The position numbers were made by a program, and so were the translations under genes. Below, piece after piece: positions 786-8,697 of a stretch of 9,984 bases of DNA. Numbering within the stretch: the stretch's first letter is position 1; each line of letters begins with the position of its first letter. This DNA is from a virus (Duplodnaviria > Heunggongvirae > Uroviricota > Caudoviricetes), in the IMG/VR virus record IMGVR_UViG_2703718842_000003; one strand, 5' to 3'. Under the pieces are notes generated by a model that searched no databases, was not told the origin of the DNA, and saw only the letters and a list, made by a program, of their open reading frames with translations.

Positions 786-888
786 TTTGCGAATACCTCG
801 AATTATTAGTTTTGCTAATGAAGATTGCCCGGCACCGTCTTATTGTGGGACACCTTCGCCAGATTTTTTTGTATATAAACAAAAATAG

Positions 889-1148
889 TGTTGTCTCTGT
901 TGTCTTTGTTGTCTCACGGCTCTACAGGCCGCGCCACGTCTGGGTTTTGCTGAGACAACATTTGCAATTTCGTGTTGTCTCACCCGGCATAAATGTTGTC
1001 TCACTGCCTGCCGGACTAAAAACACACGTTCGCCCTGTTGTCTCAAAATGGCTAAATGTTGTCTCAATGTTGTCTCAGAAATTAAAATAAAATCCTTATA
1101 AATCAATGTAACTTACAAAATGAGACAACAAAGACAACTGAGACAACA
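889..1148. repeat. Iteron array, probable replication origin, with an AT-rich tract (about 1078..1120)
   Basis: 10-mer TGTTGTCTCA in direct orientation at 907, 973, 994, 1036, 1057, 1068 (variants at 889 and 898) and as inverse TGAGACAACA at 951, 1121, 1139 (variant at 1131). Spacings of 21, 21, 42 and 11 bp suggest helical phasing. Sits directly downstream of the primase-helicase stop (1174). Confidence 0.75.
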
Positions 1149-1173: not shown

Positions 1174-3933
1174 TTATTCTTCTGGCTGGCTGCTTTCCTC
1201 ATCCATGAAGTTGAGCACATAAACGCGAATTTGCCGCCCTCCTTCCCTTACCCGCCCCTGATAACCTCGCCCGCTCGTTGGTGGTGTTAGCATTCCTGCA
1301 TTCTTGAGAACTTCGGCAAACTGCCTGACATTAAAACCCCGTGCGATCTCCTGCTCAAATGTTGCCGGGAAGGTGTAGAAAATTATCGGGTCGCCGTCGT
1401 GGTTCCCCTTCTTCCTGTACCCGGCTAAATCACGGATGGGTAAATCGCGCGGGTCATAACCCAGCGGCGCGAATCTACTCAGCCCATAGGCATTTAAAAA
1501 CGCCTCCGTCTGCTCGATGATCTGCTGGTGCTCTTTGTTCCCCGTGCCGAACTCTTTCAGCCATGCGTTATAGGTGTGCTGTATCGCATCCCGGCACGTT
1601 TGAGCATCCCAGCCAGTAACCACGCCACCCAGCAGTAAAGCGGCCTCCAGAATGGCGAACCTCGCCCCTACACGGTGAACCTGTTCCCCATAGTCAGCAG
1701 GGATTAGACTTCGCCATCGGGCTTCACACTCACGAACGGCATCAATCGCCTGCTGCTGGTGGTCTGAAAGCCATCTAATCCACTCCCGCCCGGCAGCGCC
1801 ATGATGGTGCTGGTAAGCGTCTTTCAGCGCGTCGGCGTGATCTTTCCCTGTCTGGTGCTCATGAAAGCGCACCGCCTTACTCAGCGGGATATTCAGCAGT
1901 CGCACCAGTTGCCCCGCTTTTGTCTTGCGTCCTGCGGTGGCGATGAACGTTTCTAAATCCATTTCCCCGGTGCTGATTGCCACGGTGCGCCAGCGTTTCA
2001 GATCCCGGTTGCTTCCTTCCTTTGCTCCCTGCAATTTCCCCACGCCGTTAAACAGGGCATAGGCAGACTGAGAAACGCTTATCGGGTCTGCGCCCTGTCC
2101 GACTTCATCCAGCGGCATCAGCCCGTCATTGTGGGCGGCGGCCTCGTTTATCAGCCCCAGCGCCGTCCCATACCACGTCAGGCGCAAGGCATCAGGGTTG
2201 CCGTAAAGACTGCTCGCCACGTTCTGCGTGGTTGTTTTCCCGGCGCTCGATTGCTCATAAAAATGAATCCCGAATCCGTCACGATCTGCCACCCCGATTA
2301 ATGGCGCTGCCAGTGCTGCGGCGATGCCTGTCATCATCGCGTAGTTGCCGTATGCCAGCCGCGCAACACTGTTAAGCCAGCTTTCAGGCGTTCCTGCTAC
2401 GGTATACCCGGCAGCGGCTGAACTGCGCCCGCTGAACAAAACAGGCCGCTGAGGTGTGCCGATGATTTCCCCGTCCGGCATGATGTATGCCCCACACTGC
2501 CAGCCTGTAGCATGAGCAACGCGCCACAATTCACGCGAGCCGCTTCGCTGTAACCAGTCGGCAAGAATCGCCCGTAGGCTGTTTTTCGTTGTGACGTTGA
2601 CGCCACCAGCTTTCAGGGTGCGCCAGCCTTCACGCTCGCCAATATCAGCCAGCGGGATAGCCGCTGTTGTCGGTATGCCTGCACCAAATGCCAGCCATGA
2701 GATAATAAGATACTGATCTTTGTCGTCGCGTCCCGTGCCGATAACCTCCAACGGTGAACATAACCAGCTTTCAGCGTTGATGATCTCCCCGCTTTCCTTG
2801 TCCACCTTCGGCGTTACCCAGAAAACGCCATCTTTTCGGCTCTCAATGTGGGGTTTTAGTGGGTCTTTCTCTGGATGGTCAGTTTTACCGCCCTCAATGG
2901 CTTGCAATCGCGGTTTCACGGCTTCCCCTTGAATCTGGTACATCGAATCGTTAAACGCAGCCGTAGCGACTTCCAGCCCGTTTTGCTGGCGGTAGTCGTC
3001 CCAGTCGGCTTTGTAGTCTGTCGGCGGCAGCGCCACCCAGCCAGCCACGGATAAGGCGGCTTTCTCTGCGGCATCTTTGCCCGTGTTCGCCTGGTCGTCC
3101 TGCTGGTGGTCGTTATCTGCGGCAATGATAATCTGCGTGGCTGGATATATCCGGCGCATCACTTCGGCAACGGGTAGCAGGTTGCCCGCGTCAATTGCTG
3201 CCACTGCCAGCGCGTCCGGGCGCATCAGGTGAACTGAAAGGGCCGTCGCCAGCCCCTCGGCAATTAAAACGCTCTGCGGCGATTCTGGCGCGTTTACGGC
3301 GTGATATGCCCCGCGCTTTGCTGAACCTGTCAGGAGTCGTTTATCTCCCTGCGGCGTGATGGTCTGCGCCGCCACTACTGCGCCGGATTCATCCACCAGC
3401 GGCAGGAGTAGCGAACCATCAGACATAACCGGGTAATTAAACCCGGTCAGCCCTTTTGATTGCAGGTAATCAGATTCGCCCTGTGTGACACTCTGGCGCA
3501 TTCCGGCATACAGACGGGCAAACGTAGCCCTTCGCTGCTCTGCGTCCTCTGCTGCCTGTTTCTGGCGCTCCTGCTCACGCTGCTGGCGGTCAGCTTCCAG
3601 TTGCTCTCTTCTATGGCTCGCTGCCACCGGGTCGGTTTGCGCTGCCCGGTAATCAATACCCAGCACGTCAGCGGCAAGCTGTGCCGCCTCCGTAGTGCCG
3701 CAGTTGTTAACCCGCTTGATTAAATCCAGCCCGTCACCAGCGCCACACTGGTTGCAGATAAAGCTACCGCGCCCGTTGTCGTCGAATCTGAAACGGTCTT
3801 TTCCTCCACATGCAGGGCACGGAGAATGGCGGCGCGATGAATCAGGCACGTCGATAGACAGGCCAGCCAGCACATAAGGCCAGTTACCAGCGGCGGCGGT
3901 GGTCACTTCGCGGATAAGGTCGATATTACGCAT
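1174..3933 (-). CDS. Primase-helicase, P4 alpha / pri-rep type (919 aa)
   Basis: ATG at 3933 with GGGAGG 9 nt upstream. N-terminal Zn-ribbon CPAC...CNQC (residues 39-63), TOPRIM-like AEGLATA and IIAADNDHQ acidic motif, C-terminal P-loop-like SSAGKTT consistent with a D5/SF3-type helicase. Family call from motif recollection. Confidence 0.9.
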   Translation of the reverse strand: MRNIDLIREVTTAAAGNWPYVLAGLSIDVPDSSRRHSPCPACGGKDRFRFDDNGRGSFICNQCGAGDGLDLIKRVNNCGTTEAAQLAADVLGIDYRAAQTDPVAASHRREQLEADRQQREQERQKQAAEDAEQRRATFARLYAGMRQSVTQGESDYLQSKGLTGFNYPVMSDGSLLLPLVDESGAVVAAQTITPQGDKRLLTGSAKRGAYHAVNAPESPQSVLIAEGLATALSVHLMRPDALAVAAIDAGNLLPVAEVMRRIYPATQIIIAADNDHQQDDQANTGKDAAEKAALSVAGWVALPPTDYKADWDDYRQQNGLEVATAAFNDSMYQIQGEAVKPRLQAIEGGKTDHPEKDPLKPHIESRKDGVFWVTPKVDKESGEIINAESWLCSPLEVIGTGRDDKDQYLIISWLAFGAGIPTTAAIPLADIGEREGWRTLKAGGVNVTTKNSLRAILADWLQRSGSRELWRVAHATGWQCGAYIMPDGEIIGTPQRPVLFSGRSSAAAGYTVAGTPESWLNSVARLAYGNYAMMTGIAAALAAPLIGVADRDGFGIHFYEQSSAGKTTTQNVASSLYGNPDALRLTWYGTALGLINEAAAHNDGLMPLDEVGQGADPISVSQSAYALFNGVGKLQGAKEGSNRDLKRWRTVAISTGEMDLETFIATAGRKTKAGQLVRLLNIPLSKAVRFHEHQTGKDHADALKDAYQHHHGAAGREWIRWLSDHQQQAIDAVRECEARWRSLIPADYGEQVHRVGARFAILEAALLLGGVVTGWDAQTCRDAIQHTYNAWLKEFGTGNKEHQQIIEQTEAFLNAYGLSRFAPLGYDPRDLPIRDLAGYRKKGNHDGDPIIFYTFPATFEQEIARGFNVRQFAEVLKNAGMLTPPTSGRGYQGRVREGGRQIRVYVLNFMDEESSQPEE

Positions 3934-3947
3934 TCGTGTTACCTCCC

Positions 3948-4574
3948 TCAGTGCGCCGCTGGCATTTCAGGCCAGCCGTTTTCATCCAGATCAGCAATGA
4001 AGTGATCGTGTAGCTCTGCCAGCGTTTCACGTCCGAACGGGGTCAGCTCGCCGCGCTCCGTATCCAGCATGGACTGATAAAACACAATGGCTTTTTCCGT
4101 ACCCTGTTCGACGCCGTATCGCTCAATCATTGCGCCCTCGATGTTGTTCGCCATCGCCAGGCGTTCAGCAAACGGGTAAACCACAATGCCCGCTGTGCCA
4201 TTGGAGTAAATCGCCACCTGCGATGATGTGCCGTCAGACTCAGTAACCGTGGTGGTGCCGTTCTCGCGCTTCATCTCAGAAATGAACGTCGCAGCAATCA
4301 GCCAGCGCCACATAGTGACGTTATGCTGCGCGGTGAAGTCGAACCAGCCACGCGCCCCGCCATCAGCAACGGCAAAATGAATGGCGTATCCGATATCTGG
4401 CTTATCGTCGTACTCTCCGGCGTCAAGGCCGTTCACGGCGCTCTCGTAGCTGATAAGAGCAACCTGCTCATATCCCCCGGCATCATTGCGGGTCATGATA
4501 TTGACGCCGTGCGGTGTGGCTTCGGCGTGTAATAAGTCGGCATTTCCCGATTTAATGGTCGGTGCGTTGCTCAT
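3948..4574 (-). CDS. Hypothetical protein (208 aa), first gene upstream of primase
   Basis: ATG at 4574 with GGAGGG 6 nt upstream; TGA stop at 3948 sits inside the primase RBS region; no motif I can assign. Confidence 0.6.
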   Translation of the reverse strand: MSNAPTIKSGNADLLHAEATPHGVNIMTRNDAGGYEQVALISYESAVNGLDAGEYDDKPDIGYAIHFAVADGGARGWFDFTAQHNVTMWRWLIAATFISEMKRENGTTTVTESDGTSSQVAIYSNGTAGIVVYPFAERLAMANNIEGAMIERYGVEQGTEKAIVFYQSMLDTERGELTPFGRETLAELHDHFIADLDENGWPEMPAAH

Positions 4575-4834
4575 GCGCTGCCCTCCGCATCAATTCTGGC
4601 TATATCGACAATCGTCAGGACTTTACTCAGCCAGCAATGCGCGATGGCTGCTTGCTCACCTTCGAGGAGTGGTAATAAATCGGTCATAACGTGAGCCAGC
4701 CCATTGCGGGCGCGGGTCATGCGTTCTGCTGTTCGGTCTGCCAGCGTAAAATCATCCGGGTATGATTCTTTGCGAGATAGCATCGCTTCGGCTTCCAGCT
4801 CTGCCGGGTGGCGGTAGATGGTATTTATGTTCAT
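4571..4834 (-). CDS. Hypothetical protein (87 aa)
   Basis: ATG at 4834 with GAGGTG upstream; its TGA stop overlaps the ATG of the 208-aa gene (ATGA overlap, 4571..4574), indicating translational coupling. Confidence 0.5.
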   Translation of the reverse strand: MNINTIYRHPAELEAEAMLSRKESYPDDFTLADRTAERMTRARNGLAHVMTDLLPLLEGEQAAIAHCWLSKVLTIVDIARIDAEGSA

Positions 4835-5010
4835 GCTGCCACCTCACGAATGCGGGTAATCTGGATGTGGGAAAGGCGTTCATTTCTGGCCTGATTTAGC
4901 GCCTCAGCTTTGGCGCTGATCGCGCTGCGGGCGTCAACGATATAAACGAACTCGACTAATTCGCCGCTCCGGGCGGTGGCGCATCCTGCAACACGGAAGT
5001 AATTAAGCAT
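4831..5010 (-). CDS. Hypothetical small protein (about 59 aa)
   Basis: Six-frame ORF 4831..5100 begins with TTG; internal ATG at 5010 has GGGGG about 6 nt upstream and overlaps the stop of the Ash/Icd frame by 8 nt; its stop overlaps the next start (ATGA at 4831..4834). Confidence 0.45.
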   Translation of the reverse strand: MLNYFRVAGCATARSGELVEFVYIVDARSAISAKAEALNQARNERLSHIQITRIREVAA

Positions 5011-5194
5011 GTGCGCCCCCTGTGCGAATACGTCCGGCAAAAAAGCAGACGTGATCGCGCACCAGAGAACGGCGAGCATCGCGTTCAGACTCGGCAGCAA
5101 TATGATGAATTTTGGCGGTAATTGTCGGCATGTCGCGGCGAACTGCTGCGATAATCCAGATAAATTGCGGTTTTTTGGTAGGGGTAGTAGCCAT
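5003..5194 (-). CDS. Icd-like host cell-division inhibitor family-like small protein (63 aa), nested in-frame in the Ash-like ORF
   Basis: Perfect AGGAGG (plus-strand cctcct 5204..5209) lies 9 nt upstream of ATG at 5194; product MATTPTKKPQFIWIIAAVRRDMPTITAKIHHIAAESERDARRSLVRDHVCFFAGRI matches my recollection of Icd-like proteins of enterobacterial prophages/satellites. Confidence 0.55.
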   Translation of the reverse strand: MATTPTKKPQFIWIIAAVRRDMPTITAKIHHIAAESERDARRSLVRDHVCFFAGRIRTGGAHA

Positions 5195-5332
5195 TATGGC
5201 AGCCTCCTGTAACTGGGATTTATTCCCACCACCGGAAACGCCAATTTCACTGGTGGTGAGCTGAACAGGGTTGGCGTAACCGGCGTTACAGGAAACCGGC
5301 GCGGATCGCTCCGCCCCCATCCAGCCCACCAT
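5003..5332 (-). CDS. Ash-family-like protein (about 109 aa if started at MVGWMG); true start uncertain because the frame stays open up to 5962
   Basis: Segment MVGWMGAERSAPVSCNAGYANPVQLTTSEIGVSGGGNKSQLQEAAIMAT resembles Ash-family N-termini as I recall them; the frame is continuous with the Icd-like reading frame. Weak RBS at 5332; alternative in-frame ATGs at 5728 and 5791. Confidence 0.45.
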   Translation of the reverse strand: MVGWMGAERSAPVSCNAGYANPVQLTTSEIGVSGGGNKSQLQEAAIMATTPTKKPQFIWIIAAVRRDMPTITAKIHHIAAESERDARRSLVRDHVCFFAGRIRTGGAHA

Positions 5333-5764
5333 TACTTTTTGAGCAATATGGGCTATAGCCATATCGCCGGGAAAGAGGTGTGCAGATGCGAGGACACAAA
5401 AAAAGACGCTCGGCGCGTCATGTGTCGCCTGTAACATTATCAGGACGCCAATCCCGGCACCAGATTTTGCTGGCGCGCTATAACCATAAACCGGGTTGGC
5501 GATAGTCGGCAAGCCCTTTTTTATGGACTCCGAATACTCACCTTCTCGCGTAACGACCCCTAAAAAATCTTCCAGCGCACGCGTATTTGTCTCGAAAGTC
5601 GATGTGGAACGGTTCACAACGGTAGCAATCCAGTTCATACCACCAGCTAGCAGAAGGAATTTATTCCCCACAGCCAGCTTTTTTGAGGTTATTTTTTCTT
5701 GGTTTAAAATGTCATCATTTGTCGTCATCCCCCGTGCGTGGATGTCAGGTTTTGACAGGTTCAG

Positions 5765-5861
5765 GCTAAGTTTTGCTAAGTCCTTAGCCATAACAATTGA
5801 TAACAGGTAATCGTTCACAACCTTAGGTTTTATAAGGTTCTGAGGGTTAACATTTGTTAAC
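5765..5861 (-). promoter_or_regulatory. Palindrome-rich AT-rich putative operator region upstream of the Ash/Icd-primase gene block
   Basis: GCTAAG at 5765 and perfect palindrome GCTAAGTCCTTAGC at 5775..5788; TAACA direct repeat flanking CAATTG (5791..5805); palindrome AACCTTAGGTT at 5819..5829; two GTTAAC hexamers 4 bp apart at 5846..5861. No convincing sigma70 -35/-10 pair identified by eye. Confidence 0.3.
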
Positions 5862-5900
5862 AGGCTAGCCAGATTAAAGGCTTCTTTCTGGGCGGCAGGT

Positions 5901-6083
5901 TCATTCAGTATCACGGCGCACCTCCACGAACTCCTTAACGAATCTCTCCAAAGGCTGAACACATGGCGACTGATAGCCCTCGCGGTAAAAGGTCACTCGG
6001 TTATGCTCGACGCGCTGTACGGTCACTACAGCCCCGTGACTGTCCTTGTAACGGCTTCCCGGCATCGGATTATGGTTACGCAT
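5901..6083 (-). CDS. DUF4222-like small protein (60 aa)
   Basis: ATG at 6083 with GGAGGT 5 nt upstream; sequence PGSRYKDSHGAVVTVQRVEHNRVTFYREGYQSPCVQPLERFVKEF resembles DUF4222 proteins common in enterobacterial prophages (recollection). Confidence 0.6.
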   Translation of the reverse strand: MRNHNPMPGSRYKDSHGAVVTVQRVEHNRVTFYREGYQSPCVQPLERFVKEFVEVRRDTE

Positions 6084-6909
6084 GGTTTACCTCCAGACGT
6101 TTAGCGAGCCAGCGTTGCGACAGGCGGGTGAGTTCTCCTTTGCGCTGCTCATATTCCATGCCCATATCAATTAACGTGATATTGGTGCTTTCGAGATAGG
6201 CGAGGTGTTCAAGCTGTGCTGCGTTCATGCTGTCCCGTGGTTCGCCAGTAATGCCATTTGCCTGCGCCCACTGCTTCGCCGTCATGCCACCCAGCACGAT
6301 ACGGGCGATCATGTTGCTCTCGTTGCTGTAGTGGCGCTGCTGCGTCGTTTTCCCCTGCTCGGCACGGGCCATATTCAGCGCATCGCACATTGGCTTAAAG
6401 TTGTTTGCGGCACTGATACGGGCTTTTAGCTGGCGACGATAGCGGGCGGCGATTTCAGGCACGGTACGCTGTAATTCTTCCTCGCACTGGATGAAATAAC
6501 GGCGGATAGCGCGACCCTGATCATTGCGTTCGATCATTGCCAGTTCTTTCGCCATTCCGACACTTAACAGATAGTCTTTGCCGGGTCTGCCAGAGTGCTT
6601 TATCTTGCTGTAAGCCGCGCCATTCGGGCTTTTCCCCAAATTTGGGGAAATTGTTTTATGGACTGAGTAATCGTGCCCAATGGTGAAGTCATATTCAGAG
6701 ATGCGATCAGTGATCCATGTAGAGAAGTCTTTTCCCACGCCCAACGCTTTGTGTAACGCTTTTGCGCTAACAATATTGGTTTCACGCCCACCGATATGAC
6801 CAGGAATAACCGGGACAATTGCGGCAAATTCATTACCGTTAATTGTGCCCTGATAGGCGTTCAGATGAGGGGCGGCCTCAGAAATTAATCTGCTTTTTTC
6901 GATGTTCAT
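6076..6909 (-). CDS. Phage antirepressor-like protein, AntA/KilAC-type (277 aa)
   Basis: ATG at 6909 with GGAG 7 nt upstream; N-terminal NIVSAKALHKALGVGKDFSTWITDRISEYDFTIGHDY matches the AntA/AntB antirepressor N-domain pattern; stop overlaps the DUF4222-like start region by 8 nt. Confidence 0.7.
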   Translation of the reverse strand: MNIEKSRLISEAAPHLNAYQGTINGNEFAAIVPVIPGHIGGRETNIVSAKALHKALGVGKDFSTWITDRISEYDFTIGHDYSVHKTISPNLGKSPNGAAYSKIKHSGRPGKDYLLSVGMAKELAMIERNDQGRAIRRYFIQCEEELQRTVPEIAARYRRQLKARISAANNFKPMCDALNMARAEQGKTTQQRHYSNESNMIARIVLGGMTAKQWAQANGITGEPRDSMNAAQLEHLAYLESTNITLIDMGMEYEQRKGELTRLSQRWLAKRLEVNHA

Positions 6910-6921
6910 TTTCAGTCTCCG

Positions 6922-7356
6922 TTAGGCGGCGGTGAGATTGTCCGGGTATAGATTGAGAATGTCGGCAATTTCAGGCTGAGAAAGTCCCTGATAGCCCCCA
7001 GCGTCGGCGTTATGGTTCACAAGCCGAATAACTTTTAGAACGTCACCGCGCCCGGTAAAGCGATAGCGTAAATGTGACCCGATCCCGTCGGGATTCTTTT
7101 CGTCGATACGCTCTAACTGAATATCAAGCCTGCGTTCTAACTCGCTGGCGTAGTTCCTTCCAGACGAAAGGCGGCAGTAGCGCAGAATGTCGTTTTCTGT
7201 CCATCCCTCTACCCCAGTGCGTAGCATATAGACGCGGGCGCGGTGCTTCTTCGGTGTGCGGCGTGGCGCTTGTGTGGTGGGCGCTGGTGGCGTAACATCA
7301 GATCCGCGAATATCTATGTTAGCCGCCTGCTGTCCGGGGCGGTTTTCTTTTTTCAT
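6922..7356 (-). CDS. Hypothetical protein (144 aa) with a basic, proline-rich N-terminus
   Basis: Start ATG shares one nucleotide with the alpA stop (TGATG, plus-strand catca at 7354..7358), so it is translationally coupled to alpA; no motif assigned. Confidence 0.6.
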   Translation of the reverse strand: MKKENRPGQQAANIDIRGSDVTPPAPTTQAPRRTPKKHRARVYMLRTGVEGWTENDILRYCRLSSGRNYASELERRLDIQLERIDEKNPDGIGSHLRYRFTGRGDVLKVIRLVNHNADAGGYQGLSQPEIADILNLYPDNLTAA

Positions 7357-7574
7357 CAGGCCACCTTCCCGCGACGCTCTGCCAGCCAGTTGTTAATCTC
7401 TACCGCATCAAAGGCGGTAATCTTCTCGCCCAGCTTTACCGGGCGCGGCAGAACCCCATTGCGAACTTTGCGATCAATGGTGGAAACGCTAACGCCCAGC
7501 AATTCAGCAAGGCGGAAGCGTCGGATATAGCCAGATTGGGGGATTGTGTGGGTTGTTGCGTTATGTGTTGCCAT
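7356..7574 (-). CDS. alpA: AlpA / excisionase-family HTH regulator (72 aa)
   Basis: ATG at 7574; core RLAELLGVSVSTIDRKVRNGVLPRPVKLGEKITAFDAVEINNWL follows the AlpA/Xis-type winged-HTH pattern (HTH, then G.FP.P.klG, then a conserved W). Confidence 0.8.
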   Translation of the reverse strand: MATHNATTHTIPQSGYIRRFRLAELLGVSVSTIDRKVRNGVLPRPVKLGEKITAFDAVEINNWLAERRGKVA

Positions 7575-7685
7575 ATGTCCCGTAACCTCTTTTGATGGTT
7601 GTTGCTTCGTTACGGGTATGATGGGAGCAATAGATTGTAATGTATCGGAATTATTAGAAAACTCCCCGGAATTTTCATAATTCCG
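7575..7685 (-). promoter_or_regulatory. alpA leader/operator region with inverted and direct repeats
   Basis: Inverted repeat CCCGTAAC (7579..7586) / GTTACGGG (7609..7616) bracketing the alpA SD (cctc 7586..7589). CGGAATT direct repeats at 7646 and 7667 (21 bp apart) plus inverted copy ATAATTCCG at 7677..7685. Minus-strand TACAAT (-10-like) at 7639..7634. Confidence 0.4.
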
Positions 7686-8609
7686 TTATCGGTTGACTCC
7701 CCCTTTTCGCAGCCAATCTATAAGCGTCTTATCATCATCCGGGAGTGGTAGCTCCTCACCTTTATTGTTAGCTTTATTTCTCAGTTGTGTAATGCTGCCT
7801 TTTAAATCACTATCGGTTAAGCCTATACGTTTAAGTAATGCGACAATTAGTCTCATCTGTTTTTCTGTTGTTTTTACTGGTTTTCCTACATTCATTTCCG
7901 TCGGCGGTAAGGGAATAACACCTCCGTTAATCATGCTTTTAATCGGCTCGCCTGTGTCTATTGCGTCTTTGAGTTTTAAAATGGTATCTCTGGCAATAAA
8001 TAGATCGGAAGTTGTCAAAGTCTCATTAAGCGCAGGTTTTCGGCTCTCACTTAACTGAAACCCTATGCTTTCGGTTAGTTGTCTGTTTAGCGTAGGTAGC
8101 CAGCTCTGATTAAAATATCTATCGCTAATTATCTGACACGAAAGGCCAGTCTTCTCGCGGAAAGTGTCCCATCCGAACGGCCTGAAAATTGTCGTGTCTA
8201 TCACCCTTGCCCTCTTAGAATAAAGAAGACTTTCTATTTCACTGTGTCCCAGACACCATAGCCCGTTCGCCAATCCTCTAAATAAAATAAGCCCACTATC
8301 TGTTTTGTATGCGTCATGTTCGGTGAGCGTGGAATTAAAATGAGATATATAGTTGCCCTCACGAAAAAGAAATGATGAGTTTCCTTTGTGTTCGTGATAA
8401 AACTCAATTGGGTCTTTTATATCTTTACCGCCTATAAAAGCCAAAGTAGAAGAAAATCCTCTCATCATTATACACAACGGTATAGCCCCAATAACTCCAT
8501 AGTGAAGTAAATCATCTGTATCGCATTGCAAAATACTAGCTGCCCTGTCGAGCTTAAAGTATTCCATAGGTGGGATTTTAATACTGCTGTGGGCTTCTTT
8601 TTTGGTCAT
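7686..8609 (-). CDS. Orphan hypothetical protein (about 307 aa from ATG 8609; 312 aa if GTG 8624), AT-rich cargo-like gene between int and alpA
   Basis: Long ORF with AGGTG 5 nt upstream of ATG 8609; sampled 60-nt lines are roughly 35-40% GC versus roughly 55-70% in int and primase (hand counts); no family motif recognised. Confidence 0.7.
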   Translation of the reverse strand: MTKKEAHSSIKIPPMEYFKLDRAASILQCDTDDLLHYGVIGAIPLCIMMRGFSSTLAFIGGKDIKDPIEFYHEHKGNSSFLFREGNYISHFNSTLTEHDAYKTDSGLILFRGLANGLWCLGHSEIESLLYSKRARVIDTTIFRPFGWDTFREKTGLSCQIISDRYFNQSWLPTLNRQLTESIGFQLSESRKPALNETLTTSDLFIARDTILKLKDAIDTGEPIKSMINGGVIPLPPTEMNVGKPVKTTEKQMRLIVALLKRIGLTDSDLKGSITQLRNKANNKGEELPLPDDDKTLIDWLRKGGVNR

Positions 8610-8641
8610 CGCGTCACCTTTCACGCTGTGCCTTAAAGAGT

Positions 8642-8697
8642 GATTGAGCCAGGCGGTAAGGCTTCCCGCTTTTCGCCCCGTCGGGCTAGGCTCAATC
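8642..8697 (-). other. Compound hairpin in the int / cargo-gene intergenic region
   Basis: 9-bp inverted repeat GATTGAGCC (8642..8650) / GGCTCAATC (8689..8697) enclosing a GC-rich inner palindrome (GCCCCGTCGGGC, CCCG..CGGG); no clear U-tract on the minus-strand transcript. Confidence 0.35.

Follow-up and report, generated by a model that had tools for sequence, protein, structure and literature searches.

A putative Cnr homologue in an overlap-coupled, candidate RNA-gated replication operon of an enterobacterial satellite-type island

What do three small genes do that stand, chained by overlapping stop and start codons, directly upstream of a primase gene? The genes, encoding proteins of 59, 87 and 208 amino acids (aa), lie in a 9,984-nucleotide (nt) stretch of viral DNA (IMG/VR record IMGVR_UViG_2703718842_000003, Caudoviricetes), hereafter the window (for coordinates see Table 1). 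A reading made from the letters of this stretch (the sequence-only reading) had taken the three genes to be translated together with the primase, had assigned no motif to any of them, and had proposed that the trio could be a small interference or immunity module. We find that the locus belongs to an operon type already known, of which it is an ordinary example, and that the new element is the link of the protein family phrog_1515, to which the 208-aa protein belongs, with Cnr of P4. On balance we favour the reading as an RNA-gated early or replication operon of P4 type, situated in an island of the phage-inducible chromosomal island (PICI) type and carrying a 208-aa Cnr-like regulator together with two accessory cassettes.

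Overlap coupling and the RNA elements upstream

The three open reading frames (ORFs) were found exactly at the positions given by the sequence-only reading, and all three coding sequences (CDS) are annotated as hypothetical proteins by RefSeq in the Escherichia coli copy of the island. The 59-aa and 87-aa genes are joined by a 4-nt ATGA overlap at 4831-4834 (...GCAGCATGAAC...), the 87-aa and 208-aa genes by another at 4571-4574 (...GCGCATGAGC...), and the TGA stop codon of the 208-aa gene (3948-3950) is directly followed by GGGAGG, with a gap of 14 nt to the primase ATG at 3933, so that the last ORF does end, as had been noticed, in the ribosome-binding region of the primase. The coupled chain starts one gene before the trio, at an Icd-like ORF which overlaps the start of the 59-aa gene by 8 nt (ATGCTTAA). 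All genes of the window lie on the minus strand. On this strand no terminator-like site was detected in the window besides that of the isrK element described below, and no promoter-like site was found between the isrK terminator and the primase.

A census of the junctions from the Icd-like gene to the primase was made in 19 related loci, giving a total of 88 junctions. Overlaps account for 67 of these (48 of -4 nt with ATGA, 16 of -8, 2 of -1 and 1 of -14), and the other 21 are gaps of 7-16 nt, nearly all directly after the 208-aa/Cnr gene. A consensus with fixed spacing, GGAGG-N5-GC-ATGA, was obtained for 45 ATGA junctions (36 distinct sequences) from 18 of the 19 loci. Because of this predominance of overlaps and the common consensus of Shine-Dalgarno (SD) sequence, spacer and ATGA, the stop/start coupling of the chain exceeds chance, and it is very probable that trio and primase form a single unit of coupled translation, in agreement with the sequence-only reading. 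The junction after the 208-aa/Cnr gene is of CACTGAGGGGG type in all related loci, always with a short gap (+7 to +16 nt) and with the stop codon inside the next SD sequence.

Upstream of the Icd-like ORF we identified an isrK-type RNA element and a C4/CI-type antisense RNA, both scoring above the gathering thresholds of their Rfam models. The isrK element holds an upstream target, GTTACAGG, at 5428-5435, and ends in a terminator hairpin followed by a T-run (5405-5419). The C4 RNA carries CCUGUAAC (complement of plus-strand 5285-5292) in a loop which the predicted fold places at GGUUUCCUGUAACGCC, and a second target lies downstream, on the SD sequence of the Icd-like ORF. In the window the octamer GTTACAGG has just three occurrences, namely the isrK target, the target at the Icd-like SD and, as the complement, the C4 loop; the chance expectation for the GTTACAGG/CCTGTAAC triplet is 0.13, and three occurrences were reached in 0 of 200 shuffles. 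Between the C4 loop GUUUCCUGUAAC and the ribosome site GUUACAGGAGGC, 12 consecutive pairs were counted by hand. Along 6.4 kilobases (kb) of the operon strand the Icd-like ribosome site was the top duplex site for the C4 loop, with an energy reached by 6 of 500 shuffles. The Rfam model of the c4-a1b1 target gave a match of 39.1, under its gathering score of 46.7. The arrangement is that of the C4/CI switch (Rfam clan CL00128), with a C4 RNA above gathering score and flanking targets, one of them on the Icd-like ribosome site. Both isrK and C4 precede the Icd-like gene in 10 of 10 related loci scanned, one of them a Xenorhabdus island and another a true P4-like element, and the two profiles are known to detect CI/seqA relatives in some Gram-negative PICIs (PMC10111431). 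By these matches the immunity element of the locus would be the C4/isrK RNA upstream of the trio, not the trio itself.

With the P4 'cI' ORF, in the C-terminal part of the latter, the Icd-like ORF shares 46% identity. RefSeq annotates a longer 'Icd-like protein' ORF (5003-5962, minus strand) of 319 aa here, with a GTG start, and of 303 aa in E. coli, which crosses the isrK and C4 RNA genes and resembles in its N-terminal part an Ash-family protein of a sister island. Since only its last 63 codons, with an SD sequence and ATG of their own, match the Icd-like model, the long CDS may in part result from misannotation.

In the favoured model, the C4 RNA of the quiescent island would pair with the ribosome site of the Icd-like ORF and, to judge from P1 and P4, would block its translation and/or cause early termination. 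Because each downstream gene starts on the stop codon of the previous one, the block could pass down the chain as far as the primase, through lost translational coupling and transcriptional polarity, and a single RNA-RNA contact would then keep the whole replication operon silent. After relief of the block, all the proteins of the chain would be made together in fixed proportion, and the 208-aa protein would most likely modulate the island primase/initiator, or the copy number, during an episomal stage. Downstream expression in the P1 immI operon is said to depend on icd translation (Biere, Citron and Schuster, in 1992), and the C4 block as assumed here goes back to P4 immunity as reportedly worked out by Ghisotti, Deho and colleagues. 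If the model is right, P4-style RNA immunity and overlap-coupled translation would govern the replication operon of PICI-type islands that are devoid of the P4 capsid-hijacking genes.

Related islands have been deposited as closed circular 'plasmids' of 12-23 kb, which suggests an excised or episomal form abundant enough for assembly and agrees with an episomal state where control of copy number would be of importance; these records do not show phage dependence. Two such records, NZ_CP148430.1 (12,152 bp) and CP031370.2 (19,229 bp), are circular non-mobilizable 'plasmids' from E. coli and Klebsiella (loci L027 and L028).

The 208-aa protein and its relation to Cnr

The 208-aa protein was assigned to phrog_1515 (E 6e-47), with no match in Pfam, NCBIfam or PADLOC. 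By exhaustive search its homologues amount to 123 representatives at 50% identity clustering, most of about 200 aa. Among 57 full-length members the motifs LD.G.YD, WRW, ER..LAN.IE, Y..M and LS..GR..L..LHD.F are kept together with a terminal His, and the layout consists of an N-terminal domain (residues about 1-75) followed by a Cnr-like domain (about 76-195) with a 22-residue beta insertion and the conserved C-terminal His. The AlphaFold2 model has a mean predicted local distance difference test (pLDDT) score of 93, and no fold relatives of it were found in PDB or BFVD.

The relation to Cnr emerged from profile comparison. As a weak secondary match (E 2e-4), the 208-aa protein hits phrog_5991, the family of P4 ORF106, that is Cnr or DUF5375, and phrog_5991 is matched by 21 of the 57 family members (best E 1e-8). 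Using hhalign, the 208-aa family aligned with P4 Cnr alone at a probability of 88% (E 3e-6) and with a 3-sequence Cnr alignment at 91% (E 9e-7) over 94 columns, family positions 76-191 corresponding to Cnr 7-102, with the 22-residue insertion, and both alignments spanning 93-94 columns; two neighbouring small proteins of 74 and 113 aa, employed as controls, gave 0.8% and 1.5%. When the trio was compared by blastp with P4 epsilon, orf151, cnr and orf88, a weak match between the 208-aa protein and Cnr (E 0.006) was the only one obtained. Homology is thus detectable over most of the length of Cnr. A precomputed match to the Pfam model of DUF5375 (PF17345), its strength not stated, exists for two close homologues of the 208-aa protein (P0068 and P0114).

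The position of the gene was compared in 17 related loci (15 from different species, collected with the 208-aa protein as query, plus two E. coli loci), onto which all window proteins were mapped. In all 17 the 208-aa homologue stands directly before the primase, or one 113-aa gene away from it, irrespective of whether the C-terminal half of the primase is of DUF927 or P4-alpha type. Placement before the primase in a CI/C4-controlled operon is accordingly common to the window, the 17 related loci, P4 and P4-like elements. From the profile matches and the placement we conclude that the 208-aa protein is a putative enlarged and distant Cnr homologue, lying outside DUF5375 as Pfam defines it.

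Terzano et al. in 1994 and Ziegelin et al. in 1997 reportedly found that Cnr keeps P4 replication in check by way of the alpha protein. The cnr gene controls plasmid copy number, and a cnr-family gene is located between epsilon and alpha in 90% of P4-like elements (PMC8628076). We tentatively propose a Cnr-like role in replication for the 208-aa protein as well, a role that we hold to be possible but somewhat short of even chances. The proposal gives a testable annotation to phrog_1515, a widespread 'hypothetical' family. Of 5426 complete E. coli genomes about 600 contain sequences like it, as do many genomes of Klebsiella and Enterobacter and some of the Stx phages.

Two other candidates were tried and rejected. 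The N-terminal domain is not a fused 74-aa gene of P4-like elements (hhalign negative), and a relation to a toxin-antitoxin antitoxin (phrog_2268) was dropped, one weak match (E 0.0086) being found in 1 of the 57 members. The island of Enterobacter adelaidei (L014) carries two tandem 208-aa paralogues, 6414-6977 and 6977-7579, which are about 22% identical. In about 10 of the 17 related loci the 208-aa gene is separated from the primase gene by a conserved one of 113-116 aa (phrog_37628, starting MITKNFRLNALAN...), which overlaps the primase start by 8 nt; it is found in L002 (9027-9368), L005, L007-L009, L012-L015 and L018, and is not in this window. No relation of the 113-aa neighbour to the Cnr/208-aa family was detectable by hhalign.

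Several observations weigh against the Cnr-like regulator and the operon model built around it. The homology to Cnr is remote, at about 17% identity, and the Pfam model of DUF5375 gave no match to the 208-aa protein even at E<=10 and none among the 57 family members at E<=0.01. While Cnr is a small single-domain protein of about 106 aa, the 208-aa protein is twice that size and its N-terminal domain is unexplained. Members of phrog_1515 are present in the temperate phages phiP27, CharmingMan and EKP1, in Klebsiella prophages and in Stx phages, where the gene is located in the early-left operon near ant/xis/int and not beside a primase; phiP27 replicates with DnaC/DnaB-like genes and without a P4-type primase. 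The function of the family is therefore not strictly tied to the P4-type primase. In the islands the 113-aa gene often stands between the two genes, and variation in the 208-aa sequence does not follow the exchange of the C-terminal (helicase/origin-binding) half of the primase, which argues against a Cnr-style binding to that half. As to the model as a whole, the spread of the C4 block along the chain is carried over from the biology of P1 and P4, and the circular 'plasmid' records could be assembled excision products and not stable replicons.

The phage members, phiP27 and the lack of co-variation would equally be expected if the 208-aa family were a general early protein of temperate phages and satellites, acting on the host or on a shared function and not on the primase, its place before the primase being operon history only; the absence of a known fold relative hinting at DNA or primase binding points the same way. 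We regard this as a serious alternative that is nevertheless rather unlikely, because the gene is placed before the primase or the 113-aa gene in every sampled satellite-type locus, with conservation of the stop-in-SD junction, and because the sole characterised relative, Cnr, regulates replication (PMC8628076).

The 87-aa and 59-aa genes

Neither the 87-aa nor the 59-aa protein gave a match in Pfam, NCBIfam, PHROG or PADLOC, or anything meaningful in phmmer searches against PDB sequences, and no homologue of either was found in 50,697 phage records. The earlier statement that no motif can be assigned is thus correct for these two, but not for the 208-aa protein with its phrog_1515 membership and Cnr-homologous domain. 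Profile searches and structure prediction, which the sequence-only reading had suggested as checks, divided the trio in a similar way: the searches led from the 208-aa protein to phrog_1515 and Cnr but to no family for the other two, and the 208-aa and 87-aa proteins could be modelled but without an informative fold relative. The 87-aa protein is strongly conserved. Its AlphaFold2 model (pLDDT 82) shows a short helix and then two long helices, for which Foldseek returned generic structural matches only, none informative, and by this model it is an orphan protein with a predicted helical hairpin, encoded by a facultative cassette. Comparisons by hhalign of the 87-aa family with the 74-aa protein of P4-like elements and with a 73-aa cassette were negative. 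The 59-aa protein, for which just 13 clusters exist in a large protein collection, is an orphan small protein of alpha/beta type and likewise a facultative cassette; a distant relationship is possible with a 66-aa cassette family that precedes the 208-aa gene in other islands, the two aligning end to end (hhalign 43%, E 2.5e-4). All we can say of the two genes is that they are satellite-specific, facultative and co-expressed accessory genes. The names attached by RefSeq to the 87-aa protein ('nicotinic acetylcholine receptor subunit beta') and to the 59-aa protein ('HAD family hydrolase') are propagated errors, and homologues of the 208-aa protein are misnamed '2-polyprenylphenol hydroxylase related flavodoxin oxidoreductase' in RefSeq/GenBank; the present analysis corrects these misleading names.

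After mapping on the 17 related loci, the 87-aa gene was detected in 11 and the 59-aa gene in 3. Between the Icd-like and 208-aa genes these loci carry varying sets of small ORFs (59/66, 87, 73/63, 92, 65, 104 and 167 aa). Of the 5426 complete E. coli genomes, 597 contain 208-aa-like DNA, 103 the 87-aa gene and 99 the 59-aa gene. Since the 87-aa and 59-aa genes are facultative and are swapped via constant junctions, the trio is a local combination within a modular overlap-coupled chain, in which only the 208-aa member is fixed, and it does not form a three-protein machine. The small genes are swappable cassettes, exchanged among islands at the GGAGG-N5-GC-ATGA junctions.

How far this exchange reflects a specialised function is a matter of more speculative readings. 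There is a slim chance that the Icd-to-Cnr stretch is a dedicated cassette array, recombining at the common junction, each gene of which is a small effector tuned to helper or host; that such effectors include, for example, a derepressor or an interference protein appears just as improbable. If true, the array would be a second variable hotspot in satellites, not described so far, next to the hotspots known for defence, and small cassettes that act as helper-specific effectors would give easy entry to satellite-helper specificity.

This leads to the proposal of the sequence-only reading that the trio, or its small members, acts on the helper, either as a derepressor similar to P4 epsilon or in interference or immunity. 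The slot is indeed comparable to that of known satellite genes, corresponding to the epsilon-orf151-cnr position in P4, and includes that of epsilon. In addition, the 59-aa and 87-aa genes are confined to satellites as far as the phage records searched are concerned, the small genes are swapped between islands in the manner of host-range or helper-range determinants, and their expression coincides with that of the replication genes, at the stage when a satellite needs to act on its helper. We still consider the proposal unlikely. For P4 epsilon (Derepression, PF25738, phrog_10016), hmmscan gave no Pfam or PHROG match in any of the three proteins, blastp nothing meaningful, and hhalign of the 87-aa and 59-aa alignments a probability of at most 0.1%; the defence models of PADLOC-DB 2.0 gave no match to the three proteins at E<=0.1. 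An AntA-type antirepressor encoded upstream could already do the job. Moreover, the three genes do not co-occur as a unit, the role of immunity element falls to the C4/isrK RNA upstream by the matches described above, and the largest of the three proteins is Cnr-like by profile comparison, so that homology to a replication protein, which the sequence-only reading had itself set against its proposal, appears here, if in remote form.

That the three proteins might form one complex, with the ATGA coupling setting its stoichiometry, is improbable: overlapping stop and start codons often go together with co-assembly, and the trio is kept as such in about 66-90 E. coli genomes, but the same junctions join whatever small ORFs are present, of the 17 loci with the 208-aa gene 6 lack the 87-aa gene and 14 the 59-aa gene, and further cassettes may be inserted between them, such as a 104-aa gene in L002.

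The window genes were compared pairwise (Nei-Gojobori) with diverged loci to obtain ratios of non-synonymous to synonymous substitution (dN/dS). The ratio was 0.14-0.24 for the 87-aa gene and 0.13-0.34 for the 208-aa gene; the 59-aa gene, which has a single diverged homologue, gave 0.29. Being well under 1, these values identify all three ORFs as genuine protein-coding genes under purifying selection. That one or more of them is a chance reading frame in a leader region can hardly be entertained, for, short as the ORFs are, few as the homologues of the 59-aa protein are and nonsensical as the database names are, dN/dS is far below 1 at high dS, ORF length, SD sequence and overlaps are kept across genera, and the AlphaFold2 model of the 87-aa protein is confident.

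The island and its likeness to known systems

The window proceeds from an integrase gene through a 312-aa ORF, an AlpA-type helix-turn-helix gene, a 144-aa ORF, the AntA antirepressor gene and a DUF4222 gene to the Icd-like ORF, the trio and the zinc ribbon-Toprim-DUF927 primase, followed by SSB and a PerC-like gene. Downstream of the primase, in the window and the full E. coli copy, SSB, PerC, hypothetical genes and a pRiA4b ORF-3 family gene were identified. The E. coli island is about 13 kb long and is located between yicC and dinD. To judge from this gene content, the element would be an integrase-AlpA-primase satellite island of Enterobacteriaceae. It agrees with the Gram-negative PICIs as described in PMC10111431 and PMC11773190, having int-alpA-pri in one orientation, the origin after pri, a size of about 10-20 kb and no structural or lysis genes. 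The P4-like core as defined in SatelliteFinder (int, psu, delta, sid, alpA, epsilon, alpha) is incomplete, since psu, sid, delta and epsilon were found neither in the window nor in the full E. coli copy. The features considered in this study are collected in Table 1.

Table 1. Position and basis of assignment of the features in the window
Feature	Position	Strand	Basis
isrK-type RNA element (= P4 seqA region)	5399..5476	minus	Rfam RF01394, 72.2 bits (gathering 50)
C4/CI-type antisense (immunity) RNA	5249..5336	minus	Rfam RF01695, 76.9 bits (gathering 45), E 4e-14
Downstream target GUUACAGG	5206..5213	minus	overlaps SD sequence of Icd-like ORF (ACAGGAGG)
Icd-like ORF, 63 aa	5003..5194	minus	NCBIfam NF033153 phage_ICD_like, E 4e-20
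59-aa gene	4831..5010	minus	ORF; same CDS annotated by RefSeq in E. coli
87-aa gene	4571..4834	minus	ORF; same CDS annotated by RefSeq in E. coli
208-aa gene	3948..4574	minus	ORF; same CDS annotated by RefSeq in E. coli
208-aa/primase junction	3934..3950	minus	CAC-TGA-GGGAGG-TAACACGA-ATG; 208-aa stop abuts primase SD sequence
Primase-helicase (zinc ribbon, Toprim, DUF927)	1174..3933	minus	Pfam PF08273, PF13362, PF06048; phrog_1139, E 2e-176
Probable replication origin	863..1148	.	AT-rich stretch and 11 TGTTGTCTC(A) iterons (both orientations), immediately after primase gene

The AT-rich stretch after the primase is a probable replication origin by its iterons, the unit of which is also written TGTTGTCTCA. 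The iteron search gave 12 matches in the window, 11 of them at 863-1148, against about 2 expected, and 12 were reached in 0 of 200 shuffles. The primases of three sister islands (L004, L016 and L002) share the N-terminal region of about 394 residues (zinc ribbon-Toprim) with the window primase at 78% identity, while the C-terminal half is either of DUF927 type or of P4-alpha type, which indicates a probable domain swap within the primase gene. The Rfam int-alpA RNA (RF02996, 64.9 bits) was detected at 8630-8696 on the minus strand, immediately downstream of the integrase gene, and it recurs in several related loci. The 312-aa ORF (7686-8624, minus strand), located between int and alpA, gave no match in Pfam, NCBIfam, PHROG or PADLOC; its slot holds different genes in related islands, and satellites often carry defence cargo there. 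A record labelled Chryseobacterium sp. 18061 (CACSKA010000004.1, locus L005) contains an island with 84-89% protein identity to the enterobacterial one, and is probably mislabelled or contaminated.

Among the known systems, P4 epsilon (PF25738), which derepresses the helper P2 prophage, has only its slot in common with the trio, between the immunity RNA region and the primase, and none of the three proteins resembles it in sequence or profile. The immI operon of P1/P7 (c4 RNA-icd-ant) resembles the locus in the complementarity of a C4-family loop to an Icd-like ribosome site and in the genes that follow and would depend on it, the dependence on Icd translation reportedly holding for P1 and being presumed for the island. 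The cargo is different, consisting of small ORFs and a primase in place of Ant, and the AntA gene lies upstream of the RNA. With Gram-negative PICIs such as EcCICFT073 and EcCIMP1 the island has in common the int-alpA-pri backbone, a unidirectional gene order, the origin after pri, a gene of the PerC family and a length of about 13 kb (PMC10111431, PMC11773190); unlike these, it carries no packaging or capsid-redirecting gene seen in the window, and it is not known to have a helper phage or to be mobilised.

The closest counterpart of the 208-aa protein is P4 Cnr (ORF106; PF17345; phrog_5991), of which it covers all but the ends (residues 7-102 of 106) and with which it shares the motifs WRW/YRR-VA, IEG..I..YG..G, LS..G and a C-terminal P..H, as well as a gene position just before the primase in a C4/CI-controlled overlap-coupled operon. 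It differs by the N-terminal domain of about 75 residues and the beta insertion, which double the length, by a partner primase that is usually of DUF927 and not of P4 alpha type, and by family members in phages away from any primase.

The closest counterpart of the locus as a whole is the left operon of P4, with the order seqA, CI RNA, 'cI'/Icd-like ORF, epsilon, orf151, cnr and alpha. The island differs from it in that its small genes are unrelated to epsilon, orf151 and the 74-aa protein of P4-like elements, in that psu, sid and delta are missing, and in that AntA, DUF4222 and the 144-aa ORF are present between alpA and the RNA region. Nevertheless, the order in the island, namely isrK/seqA-like element, C4/CI RNA, Icd-like ORF, small genes, Cnr-like gene, primase and probable iteron origin, follows that of P4, the three-fold complementary motif reproduces the seqA/seqB/seqC immunity layout, and the overlap junctions are in good agreement with those of P4 and of the P4-like elements of E. 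coli, where the genes for the Icd-like, 74-aa, DUF5375 and primase proteins are connected by the same overlap design.

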